Assembly (NCBI GenBank): GCA_021797995.1
Contig: JAJZYR010000003.1
Location: 8,798-72,797, forward strand
Source: Candidatus Micrarchaeota archaeon
Lineage (GTDB): Archaea; Micrarchaeota; Micrarchaeia; Micrarchaeales; CABMGC01
Direction of reading: 5' to 3'
Length of the DNA stretch: 64,000 bases
The translations under genes and the position numbers were made by a program. Below, piece by piece: positions 2,616 to 60,753 of this stretch; the first letter of the stretch is position 1, and each line of letters starts with the position of its first letter. The notes beneath the pieces were generated by a model. It had not been told where the DNA came from. It ran no database searches and saw only the letters and a program-made list of their open reading frames with translations.

Positions 2616-3257
2616 ATGGATACTATAATAAAAGAGATCGTAGGAAGGGCGCTTCCCCTCAGGGGCAATGACATAGACACCGACAGGATCGTACCTGCCA
2701 GGTTCCTCAAAGAGATAACCTTCTCGAGGATGGGCGAGTACGCGTTCTACGATGAGAGATTCGGCGACTCCGGAGAGAAGAAGGAGCATCCGTTCAACAA
2801 TCCCGCATATGCCGGTGCCAGCATACTGATAGTTAACAAGAACTTTGGCTGCGGATCGTCGAGGGAGCATGCACCGCAGGCAATAAAGAGGTTCGGCATC
2901 CGCGCCATAATAGGCGAGTCGTTCGCCACGATTTTCTCCGGGAACTCCTTTGCCATAGGCATGCCGCTGCTGCGGGTCAGCGCCGAAGACGCAGAGTACC
3001 TGCTGAAGGCGGTAGAGGAAAACAAGAGCGCCGAGCTCCGCATCTCGCTTCCTGACAAATCCATAACACTTAATGGCAGGGCGATCGGGTTCTCAATCCC
3101 CGAAGCGGAGCTAAATGCGTTTGTGACAGGAAGATGGGACTCGCTCAGCCTCCTGCTGGCCAACGCGGAGAAGGCAAAGCAGCTCGAAGCAGGCCTCAAA
3201 TATCCGAACAGGTTCGGCGCTGTGCACGATTCGGGAGGCGCGCAGGCCTACGGGTAA
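2616..3257 (+). CDS. leuD: 3-isopropylmalate dehydratase small subunit
   Basis: 213-aa aconitase swivel-domain ORF with GCGSSREHAP motif, directly after leuC. Confidence 0.88.
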   Translation: MDTIIKEIVGRALPLRGNDIDTDRIVPARFLKEITFSRMGEYAFYDERFGDSGEKKEHPFNNPAYAGASILIVNKNFGCGSSREHAPQAIKRFGIRAIIGESFATIFSGNSFAIGMPLLRVSAEDAEYLLKAVEENKSAELRISLPDKSITLNGRAIGFSIPEAELNAFVTGRWDSLSLLLANAEKAKQLEAGLKYPNRFGAVHDSGGAQAYG

Positions 3258-3501
3258 CCGCGACCATCACGGCAACCATGTAAAAGCGGCGATCAAAATG
3301 GAGAACAAAGAGAATAAGGCCATAAATGCATCAGGCAGGAATCAGATATCCGATATCGCCGGTGAGGATGAGCCTGCTTCCTGTAAAGCATGGCCTGTTA
3401 TAAAAAGCCGGTGTGGGCCGCGGCCTTATAAAGGAGGGGTACGAAACCGCAGCAATGCATATAAATGTAAATGAGGAAATAGCTTGGATTGCGGTGCCTA
3501 G

Positions 3502-5280
3502 ATGCAAAGGAAGGAAAATCCAGGGATAAAAGTCACGGATTACATCATAGACCGCCTGCTCAAAGCAGGCATAACGCAGGGCTTCTTCATGAGCGGCGGC
3601 ATGATAGCGCCGATTGCCGATGCATGCTACAGGAAGGGCTTCGGCCTCTTTACCATGCATCACGAACAGGCCGCTGCCTTCGCAGCCGAGGCCCAGGCGA
3701 CCGTGACAAAGAAGATAGGGGTGGCGATGGCAACAAGCGGCCCTGGCGCCACAAACCTCGTCACAGGCATAGGAAGCGCATACTTCTCCTCGAATCCCGT
3801 GCTCTTCATCACCGGTCAGGTCCAGAACAGCGAGATTAACACTGGCGGGAAGAGGAGGCAGGTCGGATTCCAGGAGACGGACATAGTCTCGATAGTAAGC
3901 AAGATAACCAAGTACTCGAGGCTGGTAAAGTCGCCGGATGCGATTGCATACGAGCTGGAGAAGGCGCTTTTCACGGCTACTGAAGGCAGGATGGGCCCGG
4001 TCCTGCTCGACATACCCTTCGATGTGCAGCTGTCAGACGTTGCGCCTGAAAGCCTCGCGCATTTCCTGGGGTCGGAAGAGCACGCCAGGCTTTCGCAGAA
4101 GGCCAAGCCTGACGAAGCAGTGCTTAATATGGTAGCTAAGATGTTTGCCGACTCCAAGAGGCCGCTGATCCTGATAGGCCACGGCGTCAGGCTCTCCAAC
4201 GCCGAGCCGGAAGTGCTGAAGCTGGTAGAGAAGGCCAACGTGCCGTTTGTCACCTCCCTTCTCGGCACAGACGTGATTCCCACGGTCCATCCTCTCTGCT
4301 ACGGGTTCATAGGCACATACGGCCAGAGGCCTGCCAACTTCGCCACTGCGAACGCCGACCTCCTGCTCGTGCTCGGCTCCAGGCTGGATGTCAGGCAGAT
4401 AGGCCCGAGGTCAGGATTCGCCCAGGCCGCCAAGATAATACACGTGGATATAGACCAGTCAGAGCTCAACGCATCGGTAAACGAGGACGTTTCTGTGGAG
4501 ATGGATATCAGCGACTTCGTAAATGCGCTCCTCCCGCTTCTGGCGAGGAAGGAACTTGGCGAATGGCTCAGCTTTCTCGACGGCCTGAAGATCAGGTACA
4601 AGGGGCCTGAGCAGAGAGTGCGCACTAACGAAATCGATCCAATCAAGGCGATAAGGCTGCTCTCGGACAGGTACGGCAGCGACGGCATTGTAGCGGTCGA
4701 TGTCGGATCGCACCAACTCTGGTTCGGTCAGGGATGGGAAACCAAGGAGGGCCAGACGGTGATGACCAATGGGGGCATGGGGCCCATGGGCTTCTCGCTT
4801 CCTGCTGCGGTAGGCGCCTCCATTGCTACTGGCAGGCGCGAGGTGCTTGTAGTGACAGGCGACGGAGGCCTGCAGGTGAACATACAGGAGATGCAAACAG
4901 TGGCAAGGAATAAACTTCCCGTAAAGATAGCCGTATTCGACAACAATGCGCTGATACTCGTTACGCAGTTCCAGTCCGACTTCCTGGGGGGCAGGAACAT
5001 AGGCAGCCTGCCCGCCGGAGGCTACGACTCCCCCGACTTCGTCAAGGTCGCCAGGGCATATGGCTTCAGCGCCGAATACGCGAACACCAGCGGCGAGCTG
5101 GAGGAAAAGATAGGCTGGCTGGTGGGGCAGAAGGGAGCGAGCCTGCTGCAGATCAAGGTGCCGCAGGAATACTGGGTTGTGCCGAAGACAAAGAGCGGCT
5201 CCCCGATGCATGACATGTCGCCGCGCCTGGACAAGGGCGAGTATGCCAGCGCTGTTAAATACGCGAAGGGCATGAAATAA
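3502..5280 (+). CDS. thiamine-pyrophosphate enzyme, acetolactate synthase large-subunit family
   Basis: 592-aa ORF. N-terminal TPP-pyrimidine domain (MATSGPGATNLVTGIGSAYFSSNPVLFITGQ) and C-terminal TPP-binding motif (VTGDGGLQVNIQEMQT...FDNN). No small subunit lies adjacent, so the exact substrate is uncertain. Confidence 0.75.
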   Translation: MQRKENPGIKVTDYIIDRLLKAGITQGFFMSGGMIAPIADACYRKGFGLFTMHHEQAAAFAAEAQATVTKKIGVAMATSGPGATNLVTGIGSAYFSSNPVLFITGQVQNSEINTGGKRRQVGFQETDIVSIVSKITKYSRLVKSPDAIAYELEKALFTATEGRMGPVLLDIPFDVQLSDVAPESLAHFLGSEEHARLSQKAKPDEAVLNMVAKMFADSKRPLILIGHGVRLSNAEPEVLKLVEKANVPFVTSLLGTDVIPTVHPLCYGFIGTYGQRPANFATANADLLLVLGSRLDVRQIGPRSGFAQAAKIIHVDIDQSELNASVNEDVSVEMDISDFVNALLPLLARKELGEWLSFLDGLKIRYKGPEQRVRTNEIDPIKAIRLLSDRYGSDGIVAVDVGSHQLWFGQGWETKEGQTVMTNGGMGPMGFSLPAAVGASIATGRREVLVVTGDGGLQVNIQEMQTVARNKLPVKIAVFDNNALILVTQFQSDFLGGRNIGSLPAGGYDSPDFVKVARAYGFSAEYANTSGELEEKIGWLVGQKGASLLQIKVPQEYWVVPKTKSGSPMHDMSPRLDKGEYASAVKYAKGMK

Positions 5281-5503
5281 CGGACCAAAGGCAGCCCAGC
5301 GGGCAGCAGGCGCCCATCACAATTCCATATCCATAATAGGAGAGATTACCGTACTTTGCATCAACAGCAAGTTTCCTTGTCGCAAGCGCAAAGACTATCG
5401 CGCCTATTATCATTACTATCACTGTAAGCGTAATTCGGCATTCCTCTTTATCATATGAGACCTCTTCTATGCCTACGGGAGTCCTTATCGGACCGAATAG
5501 CAA

Positions 5504-5513
5504 GATATAAATA
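5504..5513 (+). promoter_or_regulatory. TATA-box-like element upstream of the MNT gene
   Basis: GATATAAATA sits about 30 nt upstream of the ATG at 5538, a spacing typical of a leaderless archaeal transcript. Confidence 0.45.
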
Positions 5514-5537
5514 CCTTTAGGGATAAAGATACTGAAT

Positions 5538-6059
5538 ATGGCAGAGACCAAGATCTACATTGACGATAATGTCGACAAGAAACTGCGGGAGGAGGCGATG
5601 GCCAGGTTCGGCTACGGCCGCGGTTCCATAAGCAGCGCGGTCGAGGAGGCGATAGTGCAATGGCTCCGGCGCGACGGCATCATAAGGAAAAGGCTCGATG
5701 CCATCGTAGACATGGCCAAGAAGGACAATGGCGTCATCGCTGTACTGCTCTTCGGCAGTTATGCCAGAAAGGAGCACGACTATGTTGATGTTGATGTGGC
5801 ACTGCTGCTTGAAAAGGATGCCGCATCGTCGGACGAAAGGCTTTCGTACTCGAATGCCGAAGGCGGCTATGAAGATCATCTGGTTGACCTCTCGATACTG
5901 AACAAGATGCCGCTTGATGCCCAGAGTAAGATACTGAACGAGGCGGAAATATTGTATGTCAGGGACAAGGCAAAATTATATGACTACAGTATAGACGTAA
6001 TCGGCCGCTGGTCTGATTTCAAGCCAAGGCTTGAAGCGACATTGAACTTGAACAGGTGA
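5538..6059 (+). CDS. minimal nucleotidyltransferase (MNT antitoxin-type) with N-terminal ribbon-helix-helix-like segment
   Basis: 173-aa ORF with NTase core LLFGSYARKEHDYVDVDVALLL (GS...DxD). The N-terminus KIYIDDNVDKKLREEAMARFG...AVEEAIVQWL resembles CopG/Arc RHH. Confidence 0.75.
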   Translation: MAETKIYIDDNVDKKLREEAMARFGYGRGSISSAVEEAIVQWLRRDGIIRKRLDAIVDMAKKDNGVIAVLLFGSYARKEHDYVDVDVALLLEKDAASSDERLSYSNAEGGYEDHLVDLSILNKMPLDAQSKILNEAEILYVRDKAKLYDYSIDVIGRWSDFKPRLEATLNLNR

Positions 6060-8960: not shown

Positions 8961-10067
8961 CTAGTCCGCGAGCCCCCTGAGGAAGAACCTCCTTATTACG
9001 AGGCTAGGCCTGTCCATATCGCCGTATCTCTCGAGAAACCCCTCAATTCCAATCGCCTTAGACATGCTTATGATCCTGCCTATCGACTCCGGACCGAGGG
9101 ATGAATAGAGCCTGTTTATCATCGAATGCAGTTTCATATCCATCCCATACCTGGACATGAACCTCTTCTCATAGGCAGAGAGATCCAATCCGTTCCTTAT
9201 ATGCCCCTTTATCGCATCGGCCGCCATCAGTGCGGCATTGCCCCCAAATATAATGCCCCCTCCTGTAGTCGACTTTACCTGACCCGCAGCGTCACCGACA
9301 AGCAGGACCTCCCTTTTGGGGTCTACGATCCTCTCCCTTCTTGCCATAGGTATTATGCTCGCGCCGCCGCAGATCGGCCTGCTTTTGCCTATTGCCTCTG
9401 CAACTTCCTTGGTCCTCAGGAATCGTTCGAGCACGTGCCTGCTGTTTACCGAATGGGCCGTAGTCCCGACCCCCACCTCAAGCACGTCCTTTGCGTTTGG
9501 GCAGAGCCAGGCGAAGAGGCCAGGCCACGACCTGCTGTCGAAGAAGAGATCTGCAGCATCGGGTTCGGCCATTGTCACGTTGTACTCCTGCTTGTAAGTG
9601 ATCGCATAAGGAGGTGCGGCCCCCATTCCGAAGTGCTTTGCCACCGTGGACACTGCGCCGTCGGCCCCGATTATTACCGAGTCCTCCGCAAGTGCGTCAA
9701 GCTCCTTCCTCGCGATTCTCTTCCCGGTCACTATGCTTGTGCCGGCTCTCTCTGCATTATCAATGCAGATTTCGTTGAGCCTCTTCCTGTCGAGCACAGC
9801 GGCCACGGCACCCCTGGCGCGTATCCTCATCGTCCTTCCATTCGCATGTATGTTCGCACCCCTCAGCGTGTTCGTTACCGCCTTGGTGTAATCGAGGCCG
9901 AGCGTTCCCAGTCCGGTTAGGGAGAGTATGCCGGAGGCATGGATTCCCTCTCCAGGAACCGGTTTCTGGTCGTAAACAGTGGTAATTATCCCGTCCGCGG
10001 ACAGGCTCCTTGCGGCTATGAGCCCGGCGGTGCCGCCTCCTATCACAGCAACAGACTCCTTCTTCAT
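8961..10067 (-). CDS. geranylgeranyl reductase-family FAD-dependent oxidoreductase
   Basis: 368-aa ORF with N-terminal VAVIGGGTAGLIAA Rossmann motif and LLVGDAAGQVKSTTGGGI, typical of digeranylgeranylglycerophospholipid reductase relatives. Confidence 0.75.
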   Translation of the reverse strand: MKKESVAVIGGGTAGLIAARSLSADGIITTVYDQKPVPGEGIHASGILSLTGLGTLGLDYTKAVTNTLRGANIHANGRTMRIRARGAVAAVLDRKRLNEICIDNAERAGTSIVTGKRIARKELDALAEDSVIIGADGAVSTVAKHFGMGAAPPYAITYKQEYNVTMAEPDAADLFFDSRSWPGLFAWLCPNAKDVLEVGVGTTAHSVNSRHVLERFLRTKEVAEAIGKSRPICGGASIIPMARRERIVDPKREVLLVGDAAGQVKSTTGGGIIFGGNAALMAADAIKGHIRNGLDLSAYEKRFMSRYGMDMKLHSMINRLYSSLGPESIGRIISMSKAIGIEGFLERYGDMDRPSLVIRRFFLRGLAD

Positions 10068-10144
10068 GCTAACTACGATTGATGGATTATTAGAGAGAAG
10101 ATTCTTAAATGGGGTGGGAATAGATTAAATCATGGGTTGGGGCA

Positions 10145-11389
10145 TTGGCGCATAGGGTATACGGTAACACGGTGTTAAAGGGGCTTGCGCGCCTGCCAGG
10201 CACCGAAGCGCAGCAGGAGCGGAGGGTTCTGCCGGCAACACTTACCTCAGAGATAGACAGGCTCAGGTCCCACGACGGGTGGCTCAATGCAGGCATTCCA
10301 AAGTACAATCGCCTATTCGGGAGGGATGCTGCGATAAGCGCCTGGCAGCTCTTGAGATACGATCCTGAGATAGCAAGAAGCACGCTGCTTGAGCTGGCGA
10401 GGCTGCAAGGAACAAAGAACGACCCCGAGACAGGGGAGCAGCCTGGAAAGATACTGCATGAGAACACTGCCGTGGCGATACCTGGGATCAGCTGGCTCAG
10501 GCCTAACAGGCCCGTTTACTTCTCCATCGACTCGACTCCGCTATTCCTGATACTAGCCGGGAAGTATTATGAAGCGACGGGAGACAAGATGACGCTAAGA
10601 AAGCTGCAGCCCAACCTTGTCTCCGCAGCAAAATGGATTCTTGATTACGGAATGAGTTCAGGACTGGTAAGGTACGACAAGCCTGCCGGCGGGAAAGGGC
10701 TTCAGAGCCAGAGCTGGAAGGACGGAATAGGGGTCCTCATGGACACGCTGGAGGGGCCAGTCGCGGTGGTTGAAGTCCAGGGGTATGCATACTGCGCGCT
10801 TAGGTCAACTGCCGCCATCCTCGCCGGCTTTGCCGATGGCGCGCTTGCCGTAAGAATGAAGGAGGCGGCAGTGCTGCTCAAGAAGCGTTTCAACGAGGAA
10901 TTCTGGCCCCCAGGCGCCGATTTTCCGTACCTCACGATAGACGGCATGGGAAGGAAGCAGGCGGCGATAACGAGCAATCCTGGCCATCTGCTTTTCACAG
11001 GCATACTCAACGCCGACCAGGCCAGCCGCATAGTCTCAAGGATCTTCAAGCCAGACATGTTTACGCGGTGCGGCATAAGGACGCACTCCGCGGCAAGCCC
11101 TGACTTTGATGAATACGCTTATCAGCTCGGTTCGGTCTGGCCTCACGACAACTGGGTCATAGCGCAGGGTCTAAAATCTGCCGGATATCCTTGGCATTAC
11201 GACGCGATAAAGAGGGCAGTATCAGGCGCGCTGGTCGGTATGGGAAGCAGTCCGGAGTATATGCCCATTGGGTTTAACGGCTCTGCCATGGGCCTGGCCG
11301 ATAGCAGGCTGGTCTCGCCGCCGTGCACGCCGCAGGCATGGAGCTCAGGCGCCCTTGCTGACTTCCTGACGGAAGTGCGCAGGGGCTGA
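10145..11389 (+). CDS. glycogen-debranching-enzyme-like (alpha/alpha)6-barrel glycosidase (amylo-alpha-1,6-glucosidase family)
   Basis: 414-aa ORF whose YNRLFGRDAAISAW, STPLFLIL, VQGYAY and GSVWPHDNW blocks resemble the archaeal GDE C-terminal domain. The listed start is TTG with no in-frame ATG nearby. Confidence 0.6.
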   Translation: MAHRVYGNTVLKGLARLPGTEAQQERRVLPATLTSEIDRLRSHDGWLNAGIPKYNRLFGRDAAISAWQLLRYDPEIARSTLLELARLQGTKNDPETGEQPGKILHENTAVAIPGISWLRPNRPVYFSIDSTPLFLILAGKYYEATGDKMTLRKLQPNLVSAAKWILDYGMSSGLVRYDKPAGGKGLQSQSWKDGIGVLMDTLEGPVAVVEVQGYAYCALRSTAAILAGFADGALAVRMKEAAVLLKKRFNEEFWPPGADFPYLTIDGMGRKQAAITSNPGHLLFTGILNADQASRIVSRIFKPDMFTRCGIRTHSAASPDFDEYAYQLGSVWPHDNWVIAQGLKSAGYPWHYDAIKRAVSGALVGMGSSPEYMPIGFNGSAMGLADSRLVSPPCTPQAWSSGALADFLTEVRRG

Positions 11390-49345: not shown

Positions 49346-50442
49346 TGAGCGCAAATAGCATAGGCAGCATTTTCAAGGTAATGAGCTTTGGAGAGAGCCA
49401 CGGCAGATGCGTAGGCGTTGTCATAGACGGATGCCCCGCCGGACTTAAGCTCGACATGGTGCTTATACAAAAAGACCTTGACAGAAGGAGGACAGGGCAG
49501 AACCCCGAACTCTCATCGGTGAGGAAGGAAGAGGACAAGGTGGAGATCCTGTCAGGGGTCTTCAATGGAGTTACCACAGGAGCCCCCGTGTGCATGCTTG
49601 TATGGAACAAAGATACTATCTCAGAAGCATATGAGCAGAGGAGGTACACTCCAAGGCCGGGCCATGCCGACTTCACCGGCTTTGTCAAGTATGGCGGTTT
49701 TGAGGACTATCGCGGCGGGGGAAGATTCTCTGCAAGAAACACGGCCGGTTTTGTCATAGCTGGAACGATTGCAAAACAGCTGCTGGAGCGGTTGAATATA
49801 GAAGTGCTCGCGCATACGACAAGCATAGGGAAGGTAAGCGCCGGCAAGGCCAGCATCGAGGACATACGTGCAAACGTTCCCAAGAACGGGGTGGGATGCG
49901 CGGATCCTGATGCCGCAGACAAGATGGCCGAGGCAATATCCAAGGCCAAGAAGGGCGGCGACAGCCTGGGGGGCACGATAGAAGGGATCGCAATAAACCT
50001 TCCGGTCGGGTTGGGTGAGCCTATATTCGAAAACCTTGACGGAGAGCTCTCAAAAGCGCTCTTTGCCATCCCGGCAGTCAAGGCAGTGGAATTCGGGTCC
50101 GGATTCAAAGGATCAACGGCATTCGGCTCAGAGAACAACGACGAATTCATGCTCAATGGCGGGAAGGTGGTCACAAGGACAAACAACTCCGGAGGCATAC
50201 TTGGCGGAATATCGGACGGCATGCCAATCGTAGTAAAAATAGGGTTCAAACCGATAGCCTCGATACCAAAAAAGCAGACGACTGTCAACCTGAAGGATAT
50301 GAAAGAGGTGGAGATATCATCCATGGGCAGATTTGATCCGTGCCCGATTCCAAGGGCAATTCCAATAGTAGAGGGAATGATGGCAATCGTACTCTGCGAC
50401 TTTGCACTCAGGTCGCATCTCATTCCTCCGGTGTTAAAATGA
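49342..50442 (+). CDS. aroC: chorismate synthase
   Basis: 366-aa ORF with FGESHG, RPGHAD, GGGRFSAR and GRFDPC motifs. Confidence 0.93.
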   Translation: MMSANSIGSIFKVMSFGESHGRCVGVVIDGCPAGLKLDMVLIQKDLDRRRTGQNPELSSVRKEEDKVEILSGVFNGVTTGAPVCMLVWNKDTISEAYEQRRYTPRPGHADFTGFVKYGGFEDYRGGGRFSARNTAGFVIAGTIAKQLLERLNIEVLAHTTSIGKVSAGKASIEDIRANVPKNGVGCADPDAADKMAEAISKAKKGGDSLGGTIEGIAINLPVGLGEPIFENLDGELSKALFAIPAVKAVEFGSGFKGSTAFGSENNDEFMLNGGKVVTRTNNSGGILGGISDGMPIVVKIGFKPIASIPKKQTTVNLKDMKEVEISSMGRFDPCPIPRAIPIVEGMMAIVLCDFALRSHLIPPVLK

Positions 50443-50732
50443 ACGACCCCAAGAAAACATTAGAAGACAGCAGAAAGAGCATAGACGCGATAACGCGCGA
50501 AATGGTTAGGCTTATCCGCAAAAGGGATCTTGTAGTAAGGAAGGTAATCGAGGCAAAGCGCCAGTTGGGCATCCCGGCCCTAAATGCAGTGAGAGAGAAG
50601 GCGCTCATACGCAAAGCGCGAGATATGGCAGAAAAGGCAGGAGTAGACCCGCTACTCATGGAAAAGATAACAAGACTCATAATAGATAACAGCAGGAAAT
50701 ACGAGGAATCCTCACTAAAAAAGGCAAGATAG
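50439..50732 (+). CDS. chorismate mutase, AroQ class (monofunctional)
   Basis: 97-aa helical ORF (LEDSRKSIDAITREMVRLIRKRDLVVRKVIEAKRQLGIP..REKALI). The ATG overlaps the aroC stop (ATGA). The track ORF start at 50340 is over-extended. Confidence 0.8.
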   Translation: MNDPKKTLEDSRKSIDAITREMVRLIRKRDLVVRKVIEAKRQLGIPALNAVREKALIRKARDMAEKAGVDPLLMEKITRLIIDNSRKYEESSLKKAR

Positions 50733-50739
50733 CAGATGT

Positions 50740-50751
50740 TCCCATCGGGAT
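50740..50751. repeat. 12-bp direct repeat TCCCATCGGGAT, identical to the 3' end of tRNA-Glu (52252-52263); candidate att site
   Basis: Exact 12-mer 8 nt after the chorismate mutase stop. The second copy covers the T-stem/acceptor 3' strand of the tRNA-Glu gene. An AT-rich segment lies between the copies. Confidence 0.55.
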
Positions 50752-50887
50752 GTAACATTCAAGTTAAATGCCCACCATGTACCGCCATACTTGCTTAGAA
50801 TCTACAGCTTGAACACTCTTTTTTGACCAGTTTTATCCTGGGATATGTGCCTTTGTTGTTATTTGCTCTATGTTTCTCATGTTATAA

Positions 50888-52162
50888 CTATTTTTTGATC
50901 TGCTCGGTCTCAAGAAGCCATCTCCAGGCAGGTTTTACTTCTATTTTCTTGCCATCGTATTGCAATTCTTGCTCTTGCTCTAACGTAATTATAAAATACT
51001 CCTTTGCCTTTATTCTTTCTACAGCCTTAAGCAAACCTCCTGCTTCTCTCTCTGTATTCCCTGCGTTTAATTCATAGCACACCTGAATCACGGTCTTATC
51101 ATGGGGGATTACAAAATCTGCTTCGCGACCATTTTCATCCTTGTAGTAATAAAACTCTTTTCCAAGTCTTTTCAGATGTACTGCGATTGTGTTCTCTAGA
51201 ATTGCCCCTTTATGTTCAAGTACAGAAGGGGAGTTTTTAACTAATATTCCGCTGTCTATGCAGTATACTTTCCTAGGATTCTTATCTATCATCTTTAGCT
51301 TTCGTTCGAATTTCCTGATTTCAAATAATAGGTACGTCTCTGCTACATAGGACATGTACTTCTCCACAGTTACAGAACTCTTTATCCCGAAGTTTCCAGC
51401 AACTGAACGGTAAGTTATCATATTTGATGCATTTGCAATAAGGAAACGTACGACAGATTTCAATTCGATTGGCTTTCTTATGCTATACCTCGTAAGTATG
51501 TCCTTTCTTACGATGTCATCGACAATTTCTGTCAAGATGCGCTCATTTGACAACACTACAGATTCAGGCATTCCTCCCTTCAGAAGATATTCTTTGAAAA
51601 GTCCAGACAACAAAGCGACCTGGGTGGTCGAATATAAACCCTTCTTTATCACTTCAGGATTCTTAGCTGACAAAAACTCCAAAAACGAGAAGGGGTATAG
51701 CTCAATATCCGTATGTCTGCCGGTCATATGAGTGCCAAGTTCTTTGCTTAGCAGGTTGGCATTTGAACCGGTAATAAATATCGCATACCCCTGCCGCATC
51801 AATCGGTTGACGAAGAGCTCCCAGCCTCTTACATTTTGGATCTCATCAAAGAATGCCTTTTTCTTGTCTCCAAGCATCTCTATTAAGGTTTCCATTACCG
51901 AACGAAGATCATCGGTTGTGAGATCCGAAAGTAGTTCGTCATCAAAGTTGAAGTATAAGAAATCGTCATTGAATTTGGTACGCATTAGCTGCATTAAGAG
52001 CGTGCTTTTGCCGCAGCGGCGGACACCTTTTATTACAAAAGCAGAGGAGCCGCTATAGCTAAGAACCTCATGAAAGACCGTTCTTGGGACAGTATGCTTA
52101 AGGTTCTTGATCTCTTTTAACTGGTCTTCTATGACACTGCGTAAAAGCGGCTTAGTTATCAT
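50888..52162 (-). CDS. AAA+ ATPase (COG1373-like, AAA domain plus DUF4143-like C-terminal domain)
   Basis: 424-aa ORF with Walker A GVRRCGKSTLL, Walker B AFFDEIQ and a C-terminal restriction-endonuclease-like region. Visibly AT-richer than its neighbours. Confidence 0.7.
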   Translation of the reverse strand: MITKPLLRSVIEDQLKEIKNLKHTVPRTVFHEVLSYSGSSAFVIKGVRRCGKSTLLMQLMRTKFNDDFLYFNFDDELLSDLTTDDLRSVMETLIEMLGDKKKAFFDEIQNVRGWELFVNRLMRQGYAIFITGSNANLLSKELGTHMTGRHTDIELYPFSFLEFLSAKNPEVIKKGLYSTTQVALLSGLFKEYLLKGGMPESVVLSNERILTEIVDDIVRKDILTRYSIRKPIELKSVVRFLIANASNMITYRSVAGNFGIKSSVTVEKYMSYVAETYLLFEIRKFERKLKMIDKNPRKVYCIDSGILVKNSPSVLEHKGAILENTIAVHLKRLGKEFYYYKDENGREADFVIPHDKTVIQVCYELNAGNTEREAGGLLKAVERIKAKEYFIITLEQEQELQYDGKKIEVKPAWRWLLETEQIKK

Positions 52163-52228
52163 TGCTGAGTATATGAACGGACATGTATTTAAATCATGTG
52201 TTTTATAATAAACAAAAACATCGATTAT

Positions 52229-52246
52229 TGCTTATTATAATAAGCA
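52229..52246. terminator. perfect 18-bp palindrome TGCTTATTATAATAAGCA followed (minus strand) by a T-rich run, immediately 3' of tRNA-Glu
   Basis: Verified as its own reverse complement. The minus strand continues ...GATGTTTTTGTTTATTATAAAA. May serve as tRNA terminator and/or a recombinase site. Confidence 0.4.
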
Positions 52247-52249
52247 TTT

Positions 52250-52323
52250 GCTCCCATCGGGATTTGAACCCGAGTTGCGGGGTTGAAAGCCCCACGTCCT
52301 TGGCCGGACTAGACGATAGGAGC
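52250..52323 (-). tRNA. tRNA-Glu (anticodon UUC)
   Basis: Minus strand: GCTCCTA TC GTCT AGTCCGGCCAA GGAC G TGGGG CTTTCAA CCCCG CAAC TCGGG TTCAAAT CCCGA TGGGAGC, discriminator A. Canonical cloverleaf, 74 nt, no CCA. Confidence 0.9.
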
Positions 52324-52395: not shown

Positions 52396-53034
52396 ATGCC
52401 CGGTATGATAATATCGATAACTGGAATAGACCTTGCAGGCAAGCATACGCAGTCAGAGCTTCTTGCTGGCAAGCTCCGCAAATACGGATACCGTGTGTCT
52501 TCCTATTCGTACCCTGACTACAATTCGGTGTACGGAAGAATAATCCGCGACTATCTTGAAAAGAAAATAACAATGGGCACAGGTGAGCTGTTTCTTGTCT
52601 TTCTTGCCGACATGATGAAGGACAAGGAAAGGATAGAACGCGAGATAAGCACTGGCAGCGTGATAATAACGGACAGGTATTTCGTCGATACGATTGCATA
52701 TCAATCGGCAGGCGGGCTTGACTGCGCGATGCTTAAGGCTGTGGAAGACGCGATGGGCCTGCCAAAACCGGGGATGGTGATATATATCGACATACCGGCC
52801 TCAGTTGCCACGGAAAGGAAGGCCACGCATGGAGGCAGGCCCGATAAATACGAAGAAGATGCCGCATACCTGGAAAAGGCAAGGAGAGCGTATGAAGAGC
52901 TATTTGAGGAACGTTACACAGGGGCAGAATGGATAAAGATCGATGGGACTGATGGCATAGATAACATTCATCATAGGATATCAGAGCATGCAGTAAGGTT
53001 GCTGGAAGCAAAGAAGGTGCCGCAAGCGATTTAA
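52396..53034 (+). CDS. tmk: thymidylate kinase
   Basis: 212-aa ORF with ISITGIDLAGKHTQ P-loop, DRY motif (ITDRYFVDT) and a lid region. Confidence 0.85.
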   Translation: MPGMIISITGIDLAGKHTQSELLAGKLRKYGYRVSSYSYPDYNSVYGRIIRDYLEKKITMGTGELFLVFLADMMKDKERIEREISTGSVIITDRYFVDTIAYQSAGGLDCAMLKAVEDAMGLPKPGMVIYIDIPASVATERKATHGGRPDKYEEDAAYLEKARRAYEELFEERYTGAEWIKIDGTDGIDNIHHRISEHAVRLLEAKKVPQAI

Positions 53035-53080
53035 CAACGTGAGCGGGAAATCCCACACCCTCTTCAGAGGGTTCCCTTTA

Positions 53081-54340
53081 GACCGACATAATTGATTTCT
53101 CCTCCTAGCACCTGACGCCGCAACAAGTCAGATAATGTTGCGGCGTGATGTATAAACAGGTGCAAACATGGAAATAGCAATAGACCTCGGAAAGTGGAAG
53201 AGTTACGTTGTCATGGAAGACAACGGCAAGATTGTAAAAGAAGGATACACGGGGACGACAAAAGAGGAGTTCTTCGCATTCTTCGGACAAGTAAATAATC
53301 CGAAGATAATAGTTGAGGCCAGTAGTACTGTAAACAGGATTGCGAATATTTTTGAAGGATATGACCTTACCGTAGCCCATCCTGCAAAAGTCAAACTGAT
53401 TGCACAGTTGGTAAAGAAGACAGACAAAGTTGATACGCATACGATAATGGATCTGTACAAAAAGGACTATCTTCCGAAGTCTTATCTGCCGTCAAAGGAG
53501 ATAAGGGATATGAGAGACATCTGCAGAGAGAGGTCTTTTCTGGTAGGGCAGAGAACCGCAATCAAGAACAAGATACGTTACCAGTCATATTGCCTCGGAA
53601 TAGAGTTCAAAACATGGACAAAAAGAAACATAAAAATGCTGAAGGAAGAACCAAAACTGAGGCTCCTGATGACACAACTTGAGTCTATTACTCATACAAT
53701 AACCAAATATGAACGTATGATAAAAGACGCGGCAGTAGAAGACGCCAATGCAAGGCTGATAGACACAATACCTGGAATCGGAAAAGTAAGTGCATTGATC
53801 ATTGCATCTGAAATAGGGGATGTAAATCGTTTCCCATCAGAGGAAAACATCTTCGCATACACGGGATTGGTGCCAAGAATATACCAGTCTGGCAATAAGG
53901 AATGGAAGGGCCACATTACAAAAGGCAATGGCTTCCTGAAGTGGACGTTAGTAGAATGTGTAGGGATACACATAATGAACTCTACAGATTCGCCTATAAC
54001 TGCAGCCTATGAACGCATACGAGAAAGAAGAGGAAACAAAAAGGCAAAGATTGCAGCTGCAAGACATATGCTGCGGGCAATCTATTATATGCTCAAACGG
54101 AATCAGAATTTTGATTCCTATTTGGGAGGCAGGAGGATGCGTTGATCCCACCGTGTTGCGATGCAACGTGCTTTAGACTAACGCCCTCCTGCCCTAATGA
54201 AAGTCAGAATATCGCACTGCGATGAATAGTAGAGCATTATGAAAGTATTAAAAGATGAATGGTGATAAATGATTAACCGAGAATATTATTCTGGCCTTGC
54301 GGCTCTTGCCGCTAGGTCGGAGAAATCAATATAGTAGCGG
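53081..54340 (+). mobile_element. IS110-family insertion sequence (IS1111-like layout); boundaries approximate
   Basis: DEDD-type transposase flanked by imperfect inverted repeats: ATTGATTTCTCCtcCTAGC (53091-53109) and GCTAGgtcGGAGAAATCAAT (54311-54330). The 12-mer and 6-mer blocks are exact. The interior is AT-richer than the flanks and interrupts tmk/dcd. Confidence 0.7.
53168..54145 (+). CDS. IS110-family transposase/recombinase (DEDD N-terminal domain plus Tnp_20 C-terminal domain)
   Basis: 325-aa ORF with N-terminal IAIDLGK, C-terminal LIDTIPGIGKVSALIIASEIGDVNRF and YQSGN (Ser nucleophile context). Confidence 0.88.
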   Translation: MEIAIDLGKWKSYVVMEDNGKIVKEGYTGTTKEEFFAFFGQVNNPKIIVEASSTVNRIANIFEGYDLTVAHPAKVKLIAQLVKKTDKVDTHTIMDLYKKDYLPKSYLPSKEIRDMRDICRERSFLVGQRTAIKNKIRYQSYCLGIEFKTWTKRNIKMLKEEPKLRLLMTQLESITHTITKYERMIKDAAVEDANARLIDTIPGIGKVSALIIASEIGDVNRFPSEENIFAYTGLVPRIYQSGNKEWKGHITKGNGFLKWTLVECVGIHIMNSTDSPITAAYERIRERRGNKKAKIAAARHMLRAIYYMLKRNQNFDSYLGGRRMR

Positions 54341-54382
54341 TGGGAGGATGTCACATGCGTAAGCGCATACTAAAGTGGTAGA

Positions 54383-57545: not shown

Positions 57546-57824
57546 TTATCGCGACAGGTCGTCAGCTTCCTCCCTGCTCGCCTCCTGGGCAGAAGGTGAC
57601 GGTGAGGAGACAAGGACAACATCCCCAACATTTTTTACGTTCTTGTAAAGTATGCTCTTCTGCTTGAGGACAGACTTTGCATCGCCCTTTGCATTCTTCC
57701 AAGGTATCATAAGCAGCCTGCTTACCTCGCCCTTCTCCAAGTCCACTATTACGTCCTGTACCTCTCCGAGGTATTGGCCTCCGTCGCTGTATATATCCAT
57801 GCGGTAGATTTCCGAAATCTTCAT
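57546..57824 (-). CDS. PRC-barrel domain protein
   Basis: MKISEIYRMDIYSDGGQYLGEVQDVIVDLEKGEVSRLLM is a PRC-barrel pattern. Start chosen 33 nt downstream of the TATA (57851-57862); the ORF is open to 57872. Confidence 0.7.
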   Translation of the reverse strand: MKISEIYRMDIYSDGGQYLGEVQDVIVDLEKGEVSRLLMIPWKNAKGDAKSVLKQKSILYKNVKNVGDVVLVSSPSPSAQEASREEADDLSR

Positions 57825-57850
57825 AAGATCGCCTGCAATCATCTCTGATA

Positions 57851-57862
57851 TAAGATATAAAA
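57851..57862 (-). promoter_or_regulatory. TATA box for the PRC-barrel gene (TTTTATATCTTA on minus strand)
   Basis: Spacing to the ATG at 57824 fits a leaderless transcript. Lies 16 nt outside the left inverted repeat of the insertion. Confidence 0.4.
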
Positions 57863-57877
57863 AGCTTTGCAATAGCG

Positions 57878-57893
57878 GGGCTTTGTTAAATAA
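57878..57893. repeat. left terminal inverted repeat GGGCTTTGTTAAATAA
   Basis: Exact reverse complement of 59540-59555. Preceded by AATAGCG (57871-57877). Confidence 0.8.
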
Positions 57894-57991
57894 CTACCAT
57901 TTTGCCTGACTTCTTTAACTGTTTGCCCACTTTTTAAACAATTGGCGATCCACGGGATTGGGTTCATTACGAAAGGGAATATTCAAGAAGA

Positions 57992-58267
57992 TTAGAAATC
58001 GCCCTTGTCAAGATAAGACCAATAATCGCGAAGTCGGCTTCGGAGTTGCTCAGAAACATAAAACACATCGGGAGGCCTGTTGAGATATCTATCGTAGATA
58101 AAGTGCTGATGTTGCTGATGAAGGACATATTCAGTCTCAGCAATAGAAGAACTGCAGGTTTTTATCCGTCTTGAAGCCGATTTCGAAGATAAAGACAACC
58201 TACAAAACGGTGGAAAGGCTCTACTCTGATCAGTAGTTTCTATCGTTATACACAACATGTTTACCAT
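57992..58267 (-). CDS. hypothetical protein (91 aa) inside the insertion
   Basis: ORF only, with no recognisable motif and low GC. Confidence 0.35.
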   Translation of the reverse strand: MVNMLCITIETTDQSRAFPPFCRLSLSSKSASRRIKTCSSSIAETEYVLHQQHQHFIYDRYLNRPPDVFYVSEQLRSRLRDYWSYLDKGDF

Positions 58268-58389
58268 AATGATACGGAAGAAGGGACTGCGCGGCGAACA
58301 TTATGCGAGGGCACGCCATAAGTACTTTAAGAAGGATATAGACTCATTACTTTTGGATGTTGGATTAAGTGCCTTAGATGCATAAGCTT

Positions 58390-58926
58390 TCATCTTGTCG
58401 TATTTATTGTCAAACCAGCTATAGATTGGTAATATACTATGCTATTTCCAGCGACGCTATAAGATACCCAAATAGTTCCTTCCACATTAGTTCCTTCCAC
58501 ATGGTTTTGAGGGTTGCTTTTCAAGGTTACTCTCACACCATTTGGATTACCAGGTTGTAATTCACCAATAGATGTTACATTGATGCCACTTGCAAAGGAA
58601 GCAGGGCATAAACATTGTTGAGAGTAGTTGTTGTCGTTTATCGAAACGAATGCAACTTTAACATTAGTCCAATTAACATTAGTCCAACTCGCTCCAAGAT
58701 CTTGCATACCCCAATTTAGTGTTATGTCTCCTGTAGAAGCTGAATAACTTATATTTGAGCATACAAAACCAGCATTAGGAAGACATTGACTACTTACAGC
58801 GCTCGGCACACCAAGCAGATTAGATACAGATTTGGGAAGAGATAAATCTCCAAGGAATACCAATACTGCAAGAATAATAACCATAATTACTAAGATTGCA
58901 CCTCCTATTACTCGCATGCCTACCAT
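58390..58926 (-). CDS. pilin-like secreted protein, paralogue of 28509-29057
   Basis: N-terminal hydrophobic helix MRVIGGAILVIMVIILAVLVFLG. It shares C-x-P-x-A-x-F-x-C...G-x-[IL]-[ST]-L...Q-D-x-G-A and a C-terminal IW-x-x-Y block with the chromosomal pilin-like protein. Confidence 0.6.
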   Translation of the reverse strand: MVGMRVIGGAILVIMVIILAVLVFLGDLSLPKSVSNLLGVPSAVSSQCLPNAGFVCSNISYSASTGDITLNWGMQDLGASWTNVNWTNVKVAFVSINDNNYSQQCLCPASFASGINVTSIGELQPGNPNGVRVTLKSNPQNHVEGTNVEGTIWVSYSVAGNSIVYYQSIAGLTINTTR

Positions 58927-58986
58927 AAAATCTGCTAAACATATCTCCTGAGATATTTATTAAAGTGTTACTTCCTATACATAGTT

Positions 58987-59490
58987 ATGACGGAGCAACA
59001 ATCAACATCAAATAGTAACAAATTTTATATTCTGTTAATAGCAGGAGTGATTGTATTACTAATCGGTGTATTTGTAATGGGCTCAGATAGCTGCTTATTT
59101 ACTGGTGAAAACCCGTTTTGTAATATTCTTGGCGTAGACCCAATCCAGCTTGGATTTGTAGTGGCGTTGATTGGAACACTTATATTTTTATTATCGATAG
59201 CCAAGATATGTCTTTCACTATACCAAAACTCACAGATTAAAAATCTGTATTATATTTTACTCACAAGCATAATAGCCTTAATAGTTGGTGAAACGTTGAT
59301 ACTAATGTCAGGTTTCTCTAATACAGAAAGTGATACCCAATTGCTTGTGGCTAATCTCTTTAATATAAATGCGATAACTTCATCTTTTGAAATATATGTA
59401 GAGGGCTACGCATTTATTATAATTGGTGTGTTAGGCTTCGTTGTATCTATCATCTCTGTTTTTCTATATAAGAGAGCTGGAAAAACTTAA
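58987..59490 (+). CDS. small integral membrane protein (about 4 TM helices) inside the insertion
   Basis: 167-aa ORF with four long hydrophobic stretches, divergent from the pilin-like gene across a 60-bp AT-rich spacer. Confidence 0.5.
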   Translation: MTEQQSTSNSNKFYILLIAGVIVLLIGVFVMGSDSCLFTGENPFCNILGVDPIQLGFVVALIGTLIFLLSIAKICLSLYQNSQIKNLYYILLTSIIALIVGETLILMSGFSNTESDTQLLVANLFNINAITSSFEIYVEGYAFIIIGVLGFVVSIISVFLYKRAGKT

Positions 59491-59539
59491 TAGGGTTTCA
59501 CTTTTTAAACAAATTTTAGACTTTTTAAACAAAAGCCGC

Positions 59540-59555
59540 TTATTTAACAAAGCCC
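59540..59555. repeat. right terminal inverted repeat TTATTTAACAAAGCCC
   Basis: Exact reverse complement of 57878-57893. Followed by AATAGCG (59556-59562), and AATAGCGG recurs at 59568-59575. Confidence 0.8.
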
Positions 59556-59577
59556 AATAGCGGCCATAATAGCGGAA

Positions 59578-60753
59578 CTATGGCTGGAGCCAGTCAATCT
59601 CGTAATATTCCTGCCTGCTGTGCGGCAGCCTTATCTGCCTTATACGATAGTAAGTTACCGCCGTTTCCCTGTCCATTATGGCAAGGAGAAGGTCGAGTCT
59701 GCTCTCCCTCGCCCTCCTCAGCGCCCCTGCAAACTCCCTGCCCCCTATATACTCCTCCTCGCTGAGCGAGAGCATCGCGAAACGCGGAGGACCGCTATCA
59801 GGAGACTCCGCGTCTCCCCCCTTTCTATGGTACAGTATGTAGTCGAACCCAACATCGCGTTCGTCAGGGTCCCCAGGCACGGCAAGTATGAAGGTCTTCC
59901 GCACGGAATGCGCAACTCTTATCGCCCTGGCCCATTCGGATATCAGCAGCTTGGACTCCTTCGGGAAGACGTGTATGACGTGTTTCGAGTGGATCCAGCC
60001 TGTGCTCTCGCTCTTGAACGGCCTGGCTCCAGGGAAATAAACCCTGAAGTGGGTCCCAAACTTGAAGCCGGTCTTTATGACATAACCCTTCTCCCTCCAG
60101 TCCTTGTAGACCTGATAGAGCCTCGGGAAATCCCTCCTGCGCGCCGCAGCGTGTCTTTCAAGCTCCTTTACGGTTATGTTGTCCAGCACGAGCATTCCGT
60201 GGTCGATGAGAAACAAGGTTTCATAGACGTCGAGCTTGTTCAGCCTACCCCTCTCCGGGGCCTTGTAGGAGCCGTACTGCCCAAACCACAGCCTGTCATA
60301 GATGTCCCTGCCATGCTCGGCATCATCGATTATCGTAAGCAAGTCCGTCTTGAAGAAGACTCCGTGAAGCTTATAGTCGGGAAGCTTAAGCGAGGACACA
60401 GGGTACTCCTTTACCTGCATCCTGCCCGGCTCCGCATAGCTCGAGTCCGGGCTCTTTATAACCAGTCCGCGATCCCTCCAGTCCTTGTACGTAAAGTACC
60501 TCGACGTGAACTTTCCGGATTTCCAGAATGCCGATGCAATGTCGTTGAACGCTACCGGCTTCCCATTTGCAGTGCACTCGGCGTTCCTTACGTCCATGAG
60601 ATAAAGCGCCTCCTCGATCCCCAGGTAGAGTATGCCGTCGACCATGTTCCCGATATGGCCGCCCTTGAGCTGGTCTATTGTGGACTGGTCGTCGGAAATG
60701 ACCTCTTTTTTCGAGATAAGCTTCAGGTGCAGCATGCCATCATTTGCGCACAT
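59578..60753 (-). CDS. endA: tRNA-splicing endonuclease, three-unit single-chain form
   Basis: 391 aa. Central catalytic unit YKDWREKGYVIKTGFKFGTHFRVY...HSKHVIHV...AHSVRKTFILAV (Y/H/K triad context). An N-terminal degenerate copy (YKDWRDRGLVIKS) and an extra C-terminal about 90-aa unit are also present. Confidence 0.85.
   Translation of the reverse strand: MCANDGMLHLKLISKKEVISDDQSTIDQLKGGHIGNMVDGILYLGIEEALYLMDVRNAECTANGKPVAFNDIASAFWKSGKFTSRYFTYKDWRDRGLVIKSPDSSYAEPGRMQVKEYPVSSLKLPDYKLHGVFFKTDLLTIIDDAEHGRDIYDRLWFGQYGSYKAPERGRLNKLDVYETLFLIDHGMLVLDNITVKELERHAAARRRDFPRLYQVYKDWREKGYVIKTGFKFGTHFRVYFPGARPFKSESTGWIHSKHVIHVFPKESKLLISEWARAIRVAHSVRKTFILAVPGDPDERDVGFDYILYHRKGGDAESPDSGPPRFAMLSLSEEEYIGGREFAGALRRARESRLDLLLAIMDRETAVTYYRIRQIRLPHSRQEYYEIDWLQP

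Follow-up and report, generated by a model that had tools for sequence, protein, structure and literature searches.

How did a single ATPase gene, set in an AT-rich interval of 1.5 kb that carries no integrase, come to lie between the 3' end of a tRNA-Glu gene and a partial copy of that same end? The question is raised by a stretch of 64,000 nucleotides (nt) of contig JAJZYR010000003.1, from a Candidatus Micrarchaeota assembly (GCA_021797995.1), which is called the window below and in which the interval separates a chorismate mutase gene from the thymidylate kinase gene tmk. The ATPase belongs to the candidate defence family PDC-S01 (COG1373). A preliminary description of the locus had read the flanking repeat as an att-like footprint of site-specific integration, and this is supported by comparison with the related loci L134, L044 and L059 and with integrase-bearing elements of sister lineages. 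The reading favoured here, to which we give a probability of roughly 0.7, is that the interval (50737-52263) is an integrase-less, single-gene integrative cassette that was placed at the tRNA-Glu 3' end by site-specific recombination; because it carries no recombinase, the enzyme would have acted in trans or have been lost since. The parts of the locus, in window positions, are the following.

52249-52323, minus strand: tRNA-Glu(UUC), the putative integration target (ARAGORN; Rfam RF00005, 56.9 bits), the last 15 nt of which form the putative attL core.
52249-52263, minus strand: attL core ATCCCGATGGGAGCA (tRNA sense), containing the 12-mer at 52252-52263 (repeat analysis).
52163-52248, minus strand: proximal arm (P') and ATPase leader, 86 nt, a block conserved in L043, L044, L045 and L134.
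52229-52246: perfect 18-bp palindrome TGCTTATTATAATAAGCA, within the proximal arm.
52199-52214: near-palindrome TGTTTATTATAAAACA, 32 nt from the 18-bp palindrome and within the proximal arm.
52186-52193: TATA-like sequence TTTAAATA, 24-31 nt before the ATG and within the proximal arm.
50888-52162, minus strand: ATPase gene, the cassette's only gene, encoding 424 amino acids (aa), with AAA_14 and a C-terminal DUF4143 domain (PDC-S01 / COG1373).
50752-50887, minus strand: distal arm (P), 136 nt, non-coding, from the ATPase stop to the far core and homologous to L134 up to the core.
50737-50751, minus strand: putative attR core remnant ATCCCGATGGGAaCA (tRNA sense), with one mismatch at 50739, containing the 12-mer at 50740-50751 (repeat analysis and end of the L134 homology).
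50439-50732, plus strand: chorismate mutase (Pfam CM_2), last gene of the aro cluster and chromosomal flank beyond attR, outside the cassette.
52396-53034, plus strand: tmk (Pfam), chromosomal flank 5' of the tRNA, outside the cassette.

The exact 12-mer TCCCATCGGGAT (ATCCCGATGGGA in tRNA sense) was found in a window-wide search at 50740-50751 and 52252-52263 only, even when one mismatch was tolerated. The second copy lies inside the tRNA-Glu 3' end, which points into the island, and spans the final T-loop base, the T-stem 3' strand and 5 of the 7 bases of the acceptor 3' strand, while the far copy begins 8 nt past the chorismate mutase stop codon (TAG, 50730-50732). With extension to 21 nt (50731-50751 and 52243-52263; 18/21 identical, spacing 1512 nt) the repeat reaches 50731, overlapping that stop codon, and becomes the strongest direct repeat of the region. 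The same core of 11-15 nt stands at cassette junctions in L043, L044, L045 and L134. The composition of the interval is foreign (GC 0.40): GC was 0.38-0.42 within the island and 0.47-0.56 in its flanks, and GC at third codon positions (GC3) of the ATPase gene was 0.445 versus a window mean of 0.623, the third lowest among 57 open reading frames (ORFs) and level with an IS110 transposase. Besides the single ORF only 155 and 86 nt of the island are non-coding. These measurements bore out the preliminary description, which had placed both copies of the 12-mer and the distance to the chorismate mutase stop as found here, and had noted the higher AT content relative to the aro and tmk flanks, a lone AAA+ ATPase with a DUF4143-like domain (one ORF, matched by Pfam and PADLOC), the 18-bp palindrome next to the tRNA and the lack of an integrase.

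The closest comparison is with L134, which contains the closest non-identical relative of the ATPase (95% aa identity). L134 13-1598 is 93.6% identical in DNA to window 52323-50740, and this homology sets in at the tRNA and runs as far as 50740, where the far core finishes (...TGGGA); beyond it the two loci are unrelated. The flanks of L134, tRNA-Glu(CUC) upstream and a class I Trp/Tyr-tRNA synthetase downstream, are unrelated to those of the window. Since the cassette thus stands beside a different tRNA-Glu and the homology ends at the far repeat, it appears to have moved as one piece with no integrase encoded in it. In L134 the 5' acceptor strand of tRNA-Glu(CUC), GCCCCCA, calls for TGGGGGC, whereas the actual 3' end, TGGGAGCA, is of the UUC type and leaves a C3·A70 mismatch, exactly the trace that integration leaves when the 3' part of the target comes from the element. 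The recipient tRNA is chimeric, with a 3' end supplied by the cassette, which can overwrite another tRNA-Glu end. A chimeric join of L134 is unlikely, because the stretch shared with the window across the tRNA/cassette junction is 28 nt and L134 comes from a k = 141 assembly. As judged from the aligned loci, the segment is shown to be a discrete unit with these ends, present at more than one tRNA-Glu and supplying the 3' end of the recipient tRNA.

Breaks inside tRNA-Glu were seen separately in four independent k = 31 assemblies (Logan contigs L002-L005), at window 52274-52276 and 113-115 nt upstream of the ATPase start, which indicates a branch in the assembly graph and hence other contexts of the tRNA end in the same samples. 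The L134 copy was rejected as the cause of these breaks, the shared stretch of 28 nt being shorter than the 30 required at k = 31.

The arrangement recurred in further lineages. In L044 (ATPase identity 82%), a ParE-like toxin gene comes after tRNA-Glu(UUC), together with two other small ORFs (presumably a toxin-antitoxin pair); the ATPase gene is next, and CGATGGGAGCAC lies 61 nt past its stop. In L059 (59%), tRNA-Glu(UUC) has a different acceptor, ending ...AATCCCAGTGGGGGCA, and a 15/16 copy of that end (AATCgCAGTGGGGGCA) lies 103 nt past the ATPase stop, so that the repeat follows the host's own tRNA sequence. The ATPase genes of L043 (89%) and L045/L046 (80%) sit in unrelated contexts and have no intact tRNA beside them; a tRNA-3'-like core nevertheless stands 87-88 nt upstream, followed by the conserved leader as in the window, and in L043 a perfect TCCCGATGGGAGCAAAT occurs 14 nt past the ATPase stop. 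The window, L134 and L043, three different contexts, all contain the minimal unit of core, 86-nt arm, ATPase, arm and core. In L060, L063 and L068, 14-mers resembling the tRNA-Glu 3' end lie on the sense strand 220-260 nt upstream, for which about 0.05 were expected by chance (own calculation). The L045 cassette (3498-5686 and 9285-10834) also holds genes for a 327-aa SWIM-finger protein and an HNH-like protein; next to it are two genes for DDE transposases and a toxin-antitoxin pair of DUF433/PIN-like type, and the neighbourhood resembles a defence island.

Not only the core but also the arms are shared. The sequence TTATTATAATAA has a single occurrence upstream of the ATPase start in L043, L044, L045/L046, L047, L083 and L134. 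The proximal arms of the window and L134 differ at 5 of 86 nt and the synonymous sites by 15%, and with this lower divergence the arm must contain functional cis elements; the upstream palindromes are most likely an operator or promoter of the ATPase gene, or arm-type recombination sites. At the other end, the last ~20 nt of the distal arm (GGGCATTTAACTTGAA) recur beside the core in L045 and L130, where 12 and 11 of 3000 shuffles, respectively, reached the observed scores (about 0.4% each); beside the core in L043 there was no significant recurrence. Distal arm, core and proximal arm are contiguous in L045 and align in one piece to a synthetic junction of the window cassette's ends, which would be a circular-permutation signature, as expected from a circular intermediate or from tandem integration. 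L130 contains, at 4683-5849, a lone APH/choline-kinase-like gene between tRNA-Glu and a decayed core (CGATcGGAGCA), and the 20 nt before that core match the distal arm of the window at 16/20 positions, which suggests that one site has received different cargo between related att arms.

These parts can be assembled into a proposed mechanism. The order, in tRNA sense, would be the tRNA with its attL core ATCCCGATGGGAGCA, the 86-nt arm, the ATPase gene, the 136-nt arm, the decayed attR core and the chromosome (chorismate mutase). A circular form with an arm-core-arm site (attP) would have recombined conservatively with the tRNA 3' end; the predicted attP junction of the circle is ...GTTACATCCCGATGGGAGCAAATGCTTATT... 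/ ...AACTTGAATGTTACATCCCGATGGGAGCAAATGCTTATTATAATAAGC..., and the predicted empty site is tRNA-Glu ...ATCCCGATGGGAGCA followed by TCTGCTATCTTGCC (chorismate mutase end). The enzyme may have come from a co-resident integrase-bearing element or may have been a host recombinase, or its gene may have been lost afterwards. The cargo would be a PDC-S01 ATPase with a winged helix and a restriction-endonuclease-fold domain, presumed to serve in defence.

The 424-aa protein encoded by this cargo matched AAA_14 (9.4e-37) and DUF4143 (1.5e-22) in Pfam, and the PADLOC model PDLC04787 (PDC-S01) with 4.3e-100 over residues 23-419. Its Walker A (G51, K52, S53, T54) and Walker B (D106, E107) residues are invariant in 32 homologues, and the ratio of nonsynonymous to synonymous substitution rates (dN/dS) versus L134 is 0.13, so that the gene is functional and kept by purifying selection. 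The AlphaFold2 model (predicted local distance difference test score, pLDDT, 88) gave as its best fold matches Orc1/Cdc6 and nucleoside triphosphatases of the STAND class, with low TM-scores (AAA+ and winged helix). Such generic AAA+ and winged-helix matches were all that the whole-model fold search returned, with no nuclease-fold match for the C-terminal domain, and a search of the PDB by sequence returned no relative. DUF4143 is listed as PD-(D/E)XK family 100, of unknown function (PMC3424549). The PDC-S01 protein is presumed to act in defence against foreign nucleic acid. Among the defence candidates of prokaryotes its family reportedly ranks fourth in frequency, with enrichment in Archaea; PDC-S01 / COG1373 genes are also reported to be abundant in Archaea and to have passed repeatedly between domains (PMC12988326). 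No published account of how PDC-S01 genes move or spread was found in the literature.

Plasmids and viruses, on which the preliminary description had advised looking for the ATPase, do carry relatives of it, all of them distant. There were 303 plasmid matches, every one below 60% identity (relatives below 36%), of which 175 were from Acinetobacter and 37 from Moraxella; viral contigs contributed two distant relatives only (34-35%), and phage records 18 distant matches. There is therefore no close mobile copy in those collections.

The members of the 90% cluster of the ATPase are named Candidatus Marsarchaeota by NCBI. All of the 23 contigs examined that encode the identical chorismate mutase carry the ATPase at the same place, and the cassette is thus fixed in the species. 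Metagenomes that contain this population include ERZ27237019, ERZ27237478, SRR10238610 and SRR10276728. In sister Marsarchaeota (L129-L132) the same tRNA-Glu(UUC) precedes tmk (48% identical), which is followed by dcd, and in L129 and L131 a Phage_integrase gene (6e-13) comes after this tRNA. The element in L129 (1630-5923, 4.2 kb) contains the genes for a 209-aa Phage_integrase and a HicB-like antitoxin and several ORFs without known function, and is bounded by a perfect tRNA repeat of ~55 nt, from the D/anticodon region to the 3' end. The tmk of L130 is identical to that of L129, but the APH-like kinase gene occupies the position in question. From these gene orders the tRNA-Glu beside tmk is an integration hot spot in the lineage; the L129 element demonstrates use of the site but does not identify the enzyme behind the cassette's movement.

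A number of observations weigh against the cassette reading, the first of them concerning the repeat itself. The 12-mer alone is marginal, with 0.44 matches expected at no more than one mismatch and at least two matches in 6 of 100 shuffles; six chance 11-mers of the two tRNAs are present in the window; and a gapped match to the 3' part of tRNA-Glu (TCGGGTTCtCAATcCCCGAaGcGGAGCtAAATGC) at window 3085-3118, probably due to chance, has a local alignment score of 30. At 12 nt exact and 18/21 when extended, the shared core is short, and by itself it does not exceed chance window-wide, although the score of the extended alignment, 27, was reached in 0 of 2000 shuffles of a 180-nt interval. With a marginal 12-mer and one higher-scoring gapped match elsewhere, the significance of the repeat rests on its position and on the comparative evidence. 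The possibility, raised in the preliminary description, that the 12-mer is within chance expectation was not borne out: taken alone the 12-mer exceeds chance only marginally, and it is the comparison between loci that decides. In L134, moreover, the far core is followed by TTTCC... and not by the GGCA expected from the displaced tRNA(CUC) end.

The remaining objections concern the empty site and the enzyme. The preliminary description had looked to related genomes for chorismate mutase directly beside tRNA-Glu: no such empty site was found in the 23 contigs examined for the species, and what the comparison yielded was the same cassette at a second tRNA-Glu and no relative that has the ATPase at the same place without the repeat. 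L037 (82% aroC identity) keeps the trp/aro synteny and has another gene after chorismate mutase, a convergent one inside which the contig ends, 62 nt past chorismate mutase, so that L037 was rejected as an example of either an empty or an occupied site. A chorismate synthase scan of species representatives reached at most about 61% identity (one short partial match, 64%), and in none of these does aroC adjoin tRNA-Glu or the ATPase; in relatives whose aroC is 68-71% identical the aro genes stand in another order, and an exact look-up of the window tmk gave no record. As to the enzyme, the Pfam scan found the ATPase as the only ORF of the cassette and no integrase within it, and a phmmer search of the six-frame window translation with the L129 integrase, an insensitive search with its one query, found nothing. 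No cognate integrase was found in the window, as judged from a Pfam scan of pooled ORFs limited to the 25 leading families, a list from which one weak integrase match could drop out. The arms of the L129 element are unrelated to those of the window cassette and its repeat is much longer, so its integrase need not act on the cassette. Neither excision nor a free circle was seen.

The rival explanation that survives best, unlikely as we consider it, is that the interval is the eroded remnant of a larger integrase-bearing element from which all but the ATPase was deleted, and that the 1.5-kb segment itself did not move. On this view the copy in L134 would have arisen by homologous recombination or segmental duplication between tRNA-Glu genes, which have 28 identical 3' nucleotides. 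Erosion fits the use of this tRNA by integrase-bearing elements in sister lineages, the extra genes between the repeats of L044 and L045 (a ParE-like toxin-antitoxin module, and the SWIM-finger and HNH proteins, respectively), the decay of the far core in both the window and L134, and the fixation of the cassette in the species. It would, however, require independent deletions to reach the same ends in the window, L134 and L043, and a second exchange exactly at the far core to end the L134 homology there, and it does not lead one to expect the arm-core-arm junction of L045, which a circle or a tandem arrangement would produce. The preliminary description had offered two possibilities, a decayed integrated element and a minimal cassette mobilised in trans; that the minimal unit recurs favours the latter without settling the matter.

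A different rival emerges from the wider family. Among 80 metagenome loci with ATPase relatives of 35-65% identity, 55 ATPase genes could be tested for flanking repeats (13 bp or longer, lying no more than 450 bp from the gene on each side). Direct repeats flanked 14/55 ATPase genes and 7/112 other ORFs that were 300 aa or longer (Fisher p = 0.0008), while inverted repeats, scored as a control, flanked 0/55 ATPase genes; among extra ATPase paralogues in the surveyed loci, 6/12 had direct repeats of at least 15 bp. About a quarter of these related ATPase genes are thus flanked by direct repeats of local target sequence. These vary between loci, being 13-251 bp long and 1.4-1.76 kb apart, and exceed 30 bp in L064 (251 bp), L116 (about 165 bp), L118 (about 134 bp), L053 (37 bp) and L092 (35 bp). 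In several loci they are the ends of housekeeping genes, such as a GatE-like 3' end (L084) and a sugar transferase 3' end (L116). No integrase family was seen at least twice among 87 neighbouring ORFs, as judged from the 25 leading Pfam families listed. The pattern is similar to att-type integration and also to insertion with long target duplication.

Two kinds of arrays were seen in these loci. L116 (5600-10088) consists of the ATPase gene, a repeat, an AbrB/PIN (VapBC-like) pair, a repeat, two ORFs without known function and a repeat; the repeats reproduce the 3' end of a sugar transferase gene of bacterial type over 38-165 bp, at 93-100% identity. L118 (5692-8902) and L061 (499-4030) have two or three tandem AAA_14-DUF4143 paralogues, 33-39% identical to the window protein and each bracketed by copies of a neighbouring gene's 5' end.

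It is accordingly conceivable, if quite improbable for the window, that the gene was inserted without a recombinase and perhaps under its own power, through break and repair with a variable target duplication in which its own nuclease and ATPase may take part. The excess of direct over inverted repeats, their locus-specific sequence, length and spacing, and the lack of a recurrent integrase family among the neighbours all agree with this, as do the restriction-endonuclease fold of DUF4143 (PMC3424549) and the documentation of the phenomenon for restriction-modification genes (PMC2853133). In the clade of the window, however, one short target, the tRNA-Glu 3' core, is used throughout, among proteins of 59-100% identity, which points to site-specific recombination, and cassettes that lack the ATPase share the repeats in arrays, namely the VapBC-like pair of L116, a racemase with a toxin-antitoxin module in L045 and the APH-like kinase of L130. 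Nor is any PD-(D/E)XK enzyme known to perform strand transfer, which counts against such an insertion. In its general form, the idea would make PDC-S01 genes self-mobile single-gene elements that enter beside the ends of tRNA and protein genes and duplicate their target, with no classical recombinase encoded close by and with participation of their own ATPase-nuclease; we regard this as doubtful, but if true it would make PDC-S01 a new kind of self-mobilising gene.

That the repeat matches by chance and the ATPase gene, an ordinary neighbour of tRNA-Glu, was inherited vertically is scarcely credible: a 12-mer match to the tRNA is not unusual window-wide and one gapped match scores higher, but the L134 homology breaks exactly at the repeat and the recipient tRNA there is chimeric, the repeats of L044 and L059 co-vary with their tRNAs, the closest ATPase relatives are in unrelated contexts, and the composition is foreign. 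An insertion sequence or transposon was rejected, there being no transposase in the interval by Pfam and no inverted repeats at the two cassette ends.

Other insertions and foreign-looking segments were noted in the window outside the cassette. An IS110-family element (53035-54382; ORF 53168-54145, NCBIfam transpos_IS110, 6.7e-56), an insertion separate from the cassette, lies beyond tmk, between tmk and dcd; these two genes are adjacent, without the IS110 insertion, in the sister lineages L129-L133, and in other strains of this species (L029, L030) the gap between them holds an IS605-type TnpB gene (430 aa), so that the tmk-dcd gap is a recurrent target of insertion sequences. A second AT-rich patch (57600-59600), stronger than the ATPase island, contains ORFs at 58390-58926 (minus strand) and 58987-59490 (plus strand) with GC 0.33-0.38 and the lowest GC3 of the window (0.25-0.29, z about -3.5). 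Pfam gave nothing for one of these ORFs and just a weak DUF996 match for the other; the patch looks foreign.

With known systems the cassette shares several features. Like the tRNA-targeting tyrosine-integrase elements of Thaumarchaeota (PMC6563490) and the L129 element, it combines insertion at a tRNA 3' end, a supplied 3' end, a distal repeat and foreign composition, and short repeats have been reported for cryptic integrated elements of Thaumarchaeota (PMC6563490). The thaumarchaeal elements, however, have an integrase by definition, and the smallest cryptic one is 2.6 kb (PMC6563490), whereas the cassette has 1.5 kb, one gene and no mobility gene; its core of 12-21 nt is also short beside the ~55-nt repeat of the L129 element. 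The cis-mobilisable elements (CIMEs) of streptococci, which are att-flanked, encode no recombination functions and depend on a related integrative element for mobilisation (PMC5704250), have in common with the cassette the attL/attR bounds, the want of an own integrase and arrays formed by accretion at one site (L045, L116). They differ in that the cassette is archaeal, targets a tRNA and carries a single defence-type gene, no cognate helper having been found.

Insertion with long target duplication has been described for restriction-modification genes (Furuta, Abe and Kobayashi 2010, PMC2853133) and is likewise similar in its nuclease-fold gene, lack of mobility genes and variable direct repeats, the last as in the relatives L053, L064, L092, L116 and L118. 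The window repeat of 12-21 bp, however, falls below the >30-bp criterion of that study, there is no methyltransferase partner, and a tRNA-derived repeat was treated there as a sign of site-specific recombination (PMC2853133).

Cassettes without a recombinase, consisting of a gene with or without its promoter, are also known from integrons and as pdif modules on Acinetobacter plasmids; they are moved by an enzyme encoded elsewhere and can form arrays, and small plasmids of Acinetobacter and Moraxella are built from modules moved by host Xer recombinases. Unlike these, the cassette has neither attC hairpins nor Xer-type 28-bp sites, its boundaries are copies of the local target, and there is no integron integrase platform. 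Its gene agrees with the candidate single-gene defence system PDC-S01 / COG1373 (AAA_14 and DUF4143; PADLOC; PMC12988326) in architecture and PADLOC model, but is found here in repeat-bounded single-gene units.

On the favoured reading, the locus and its relatives show one route by which PDC-S01 genes would spread, as a minimal cassette with a conserved leader and a short att core matching the tRNA-Glu 3' end. In the wider family, direct repeats of local sequence bracket about a quarter of related ATPase genes. Together with the predicted attP and attB junctions, the locus offers a concrete model, open to test, of how defence genes turn over in archaea that have not been cultured.

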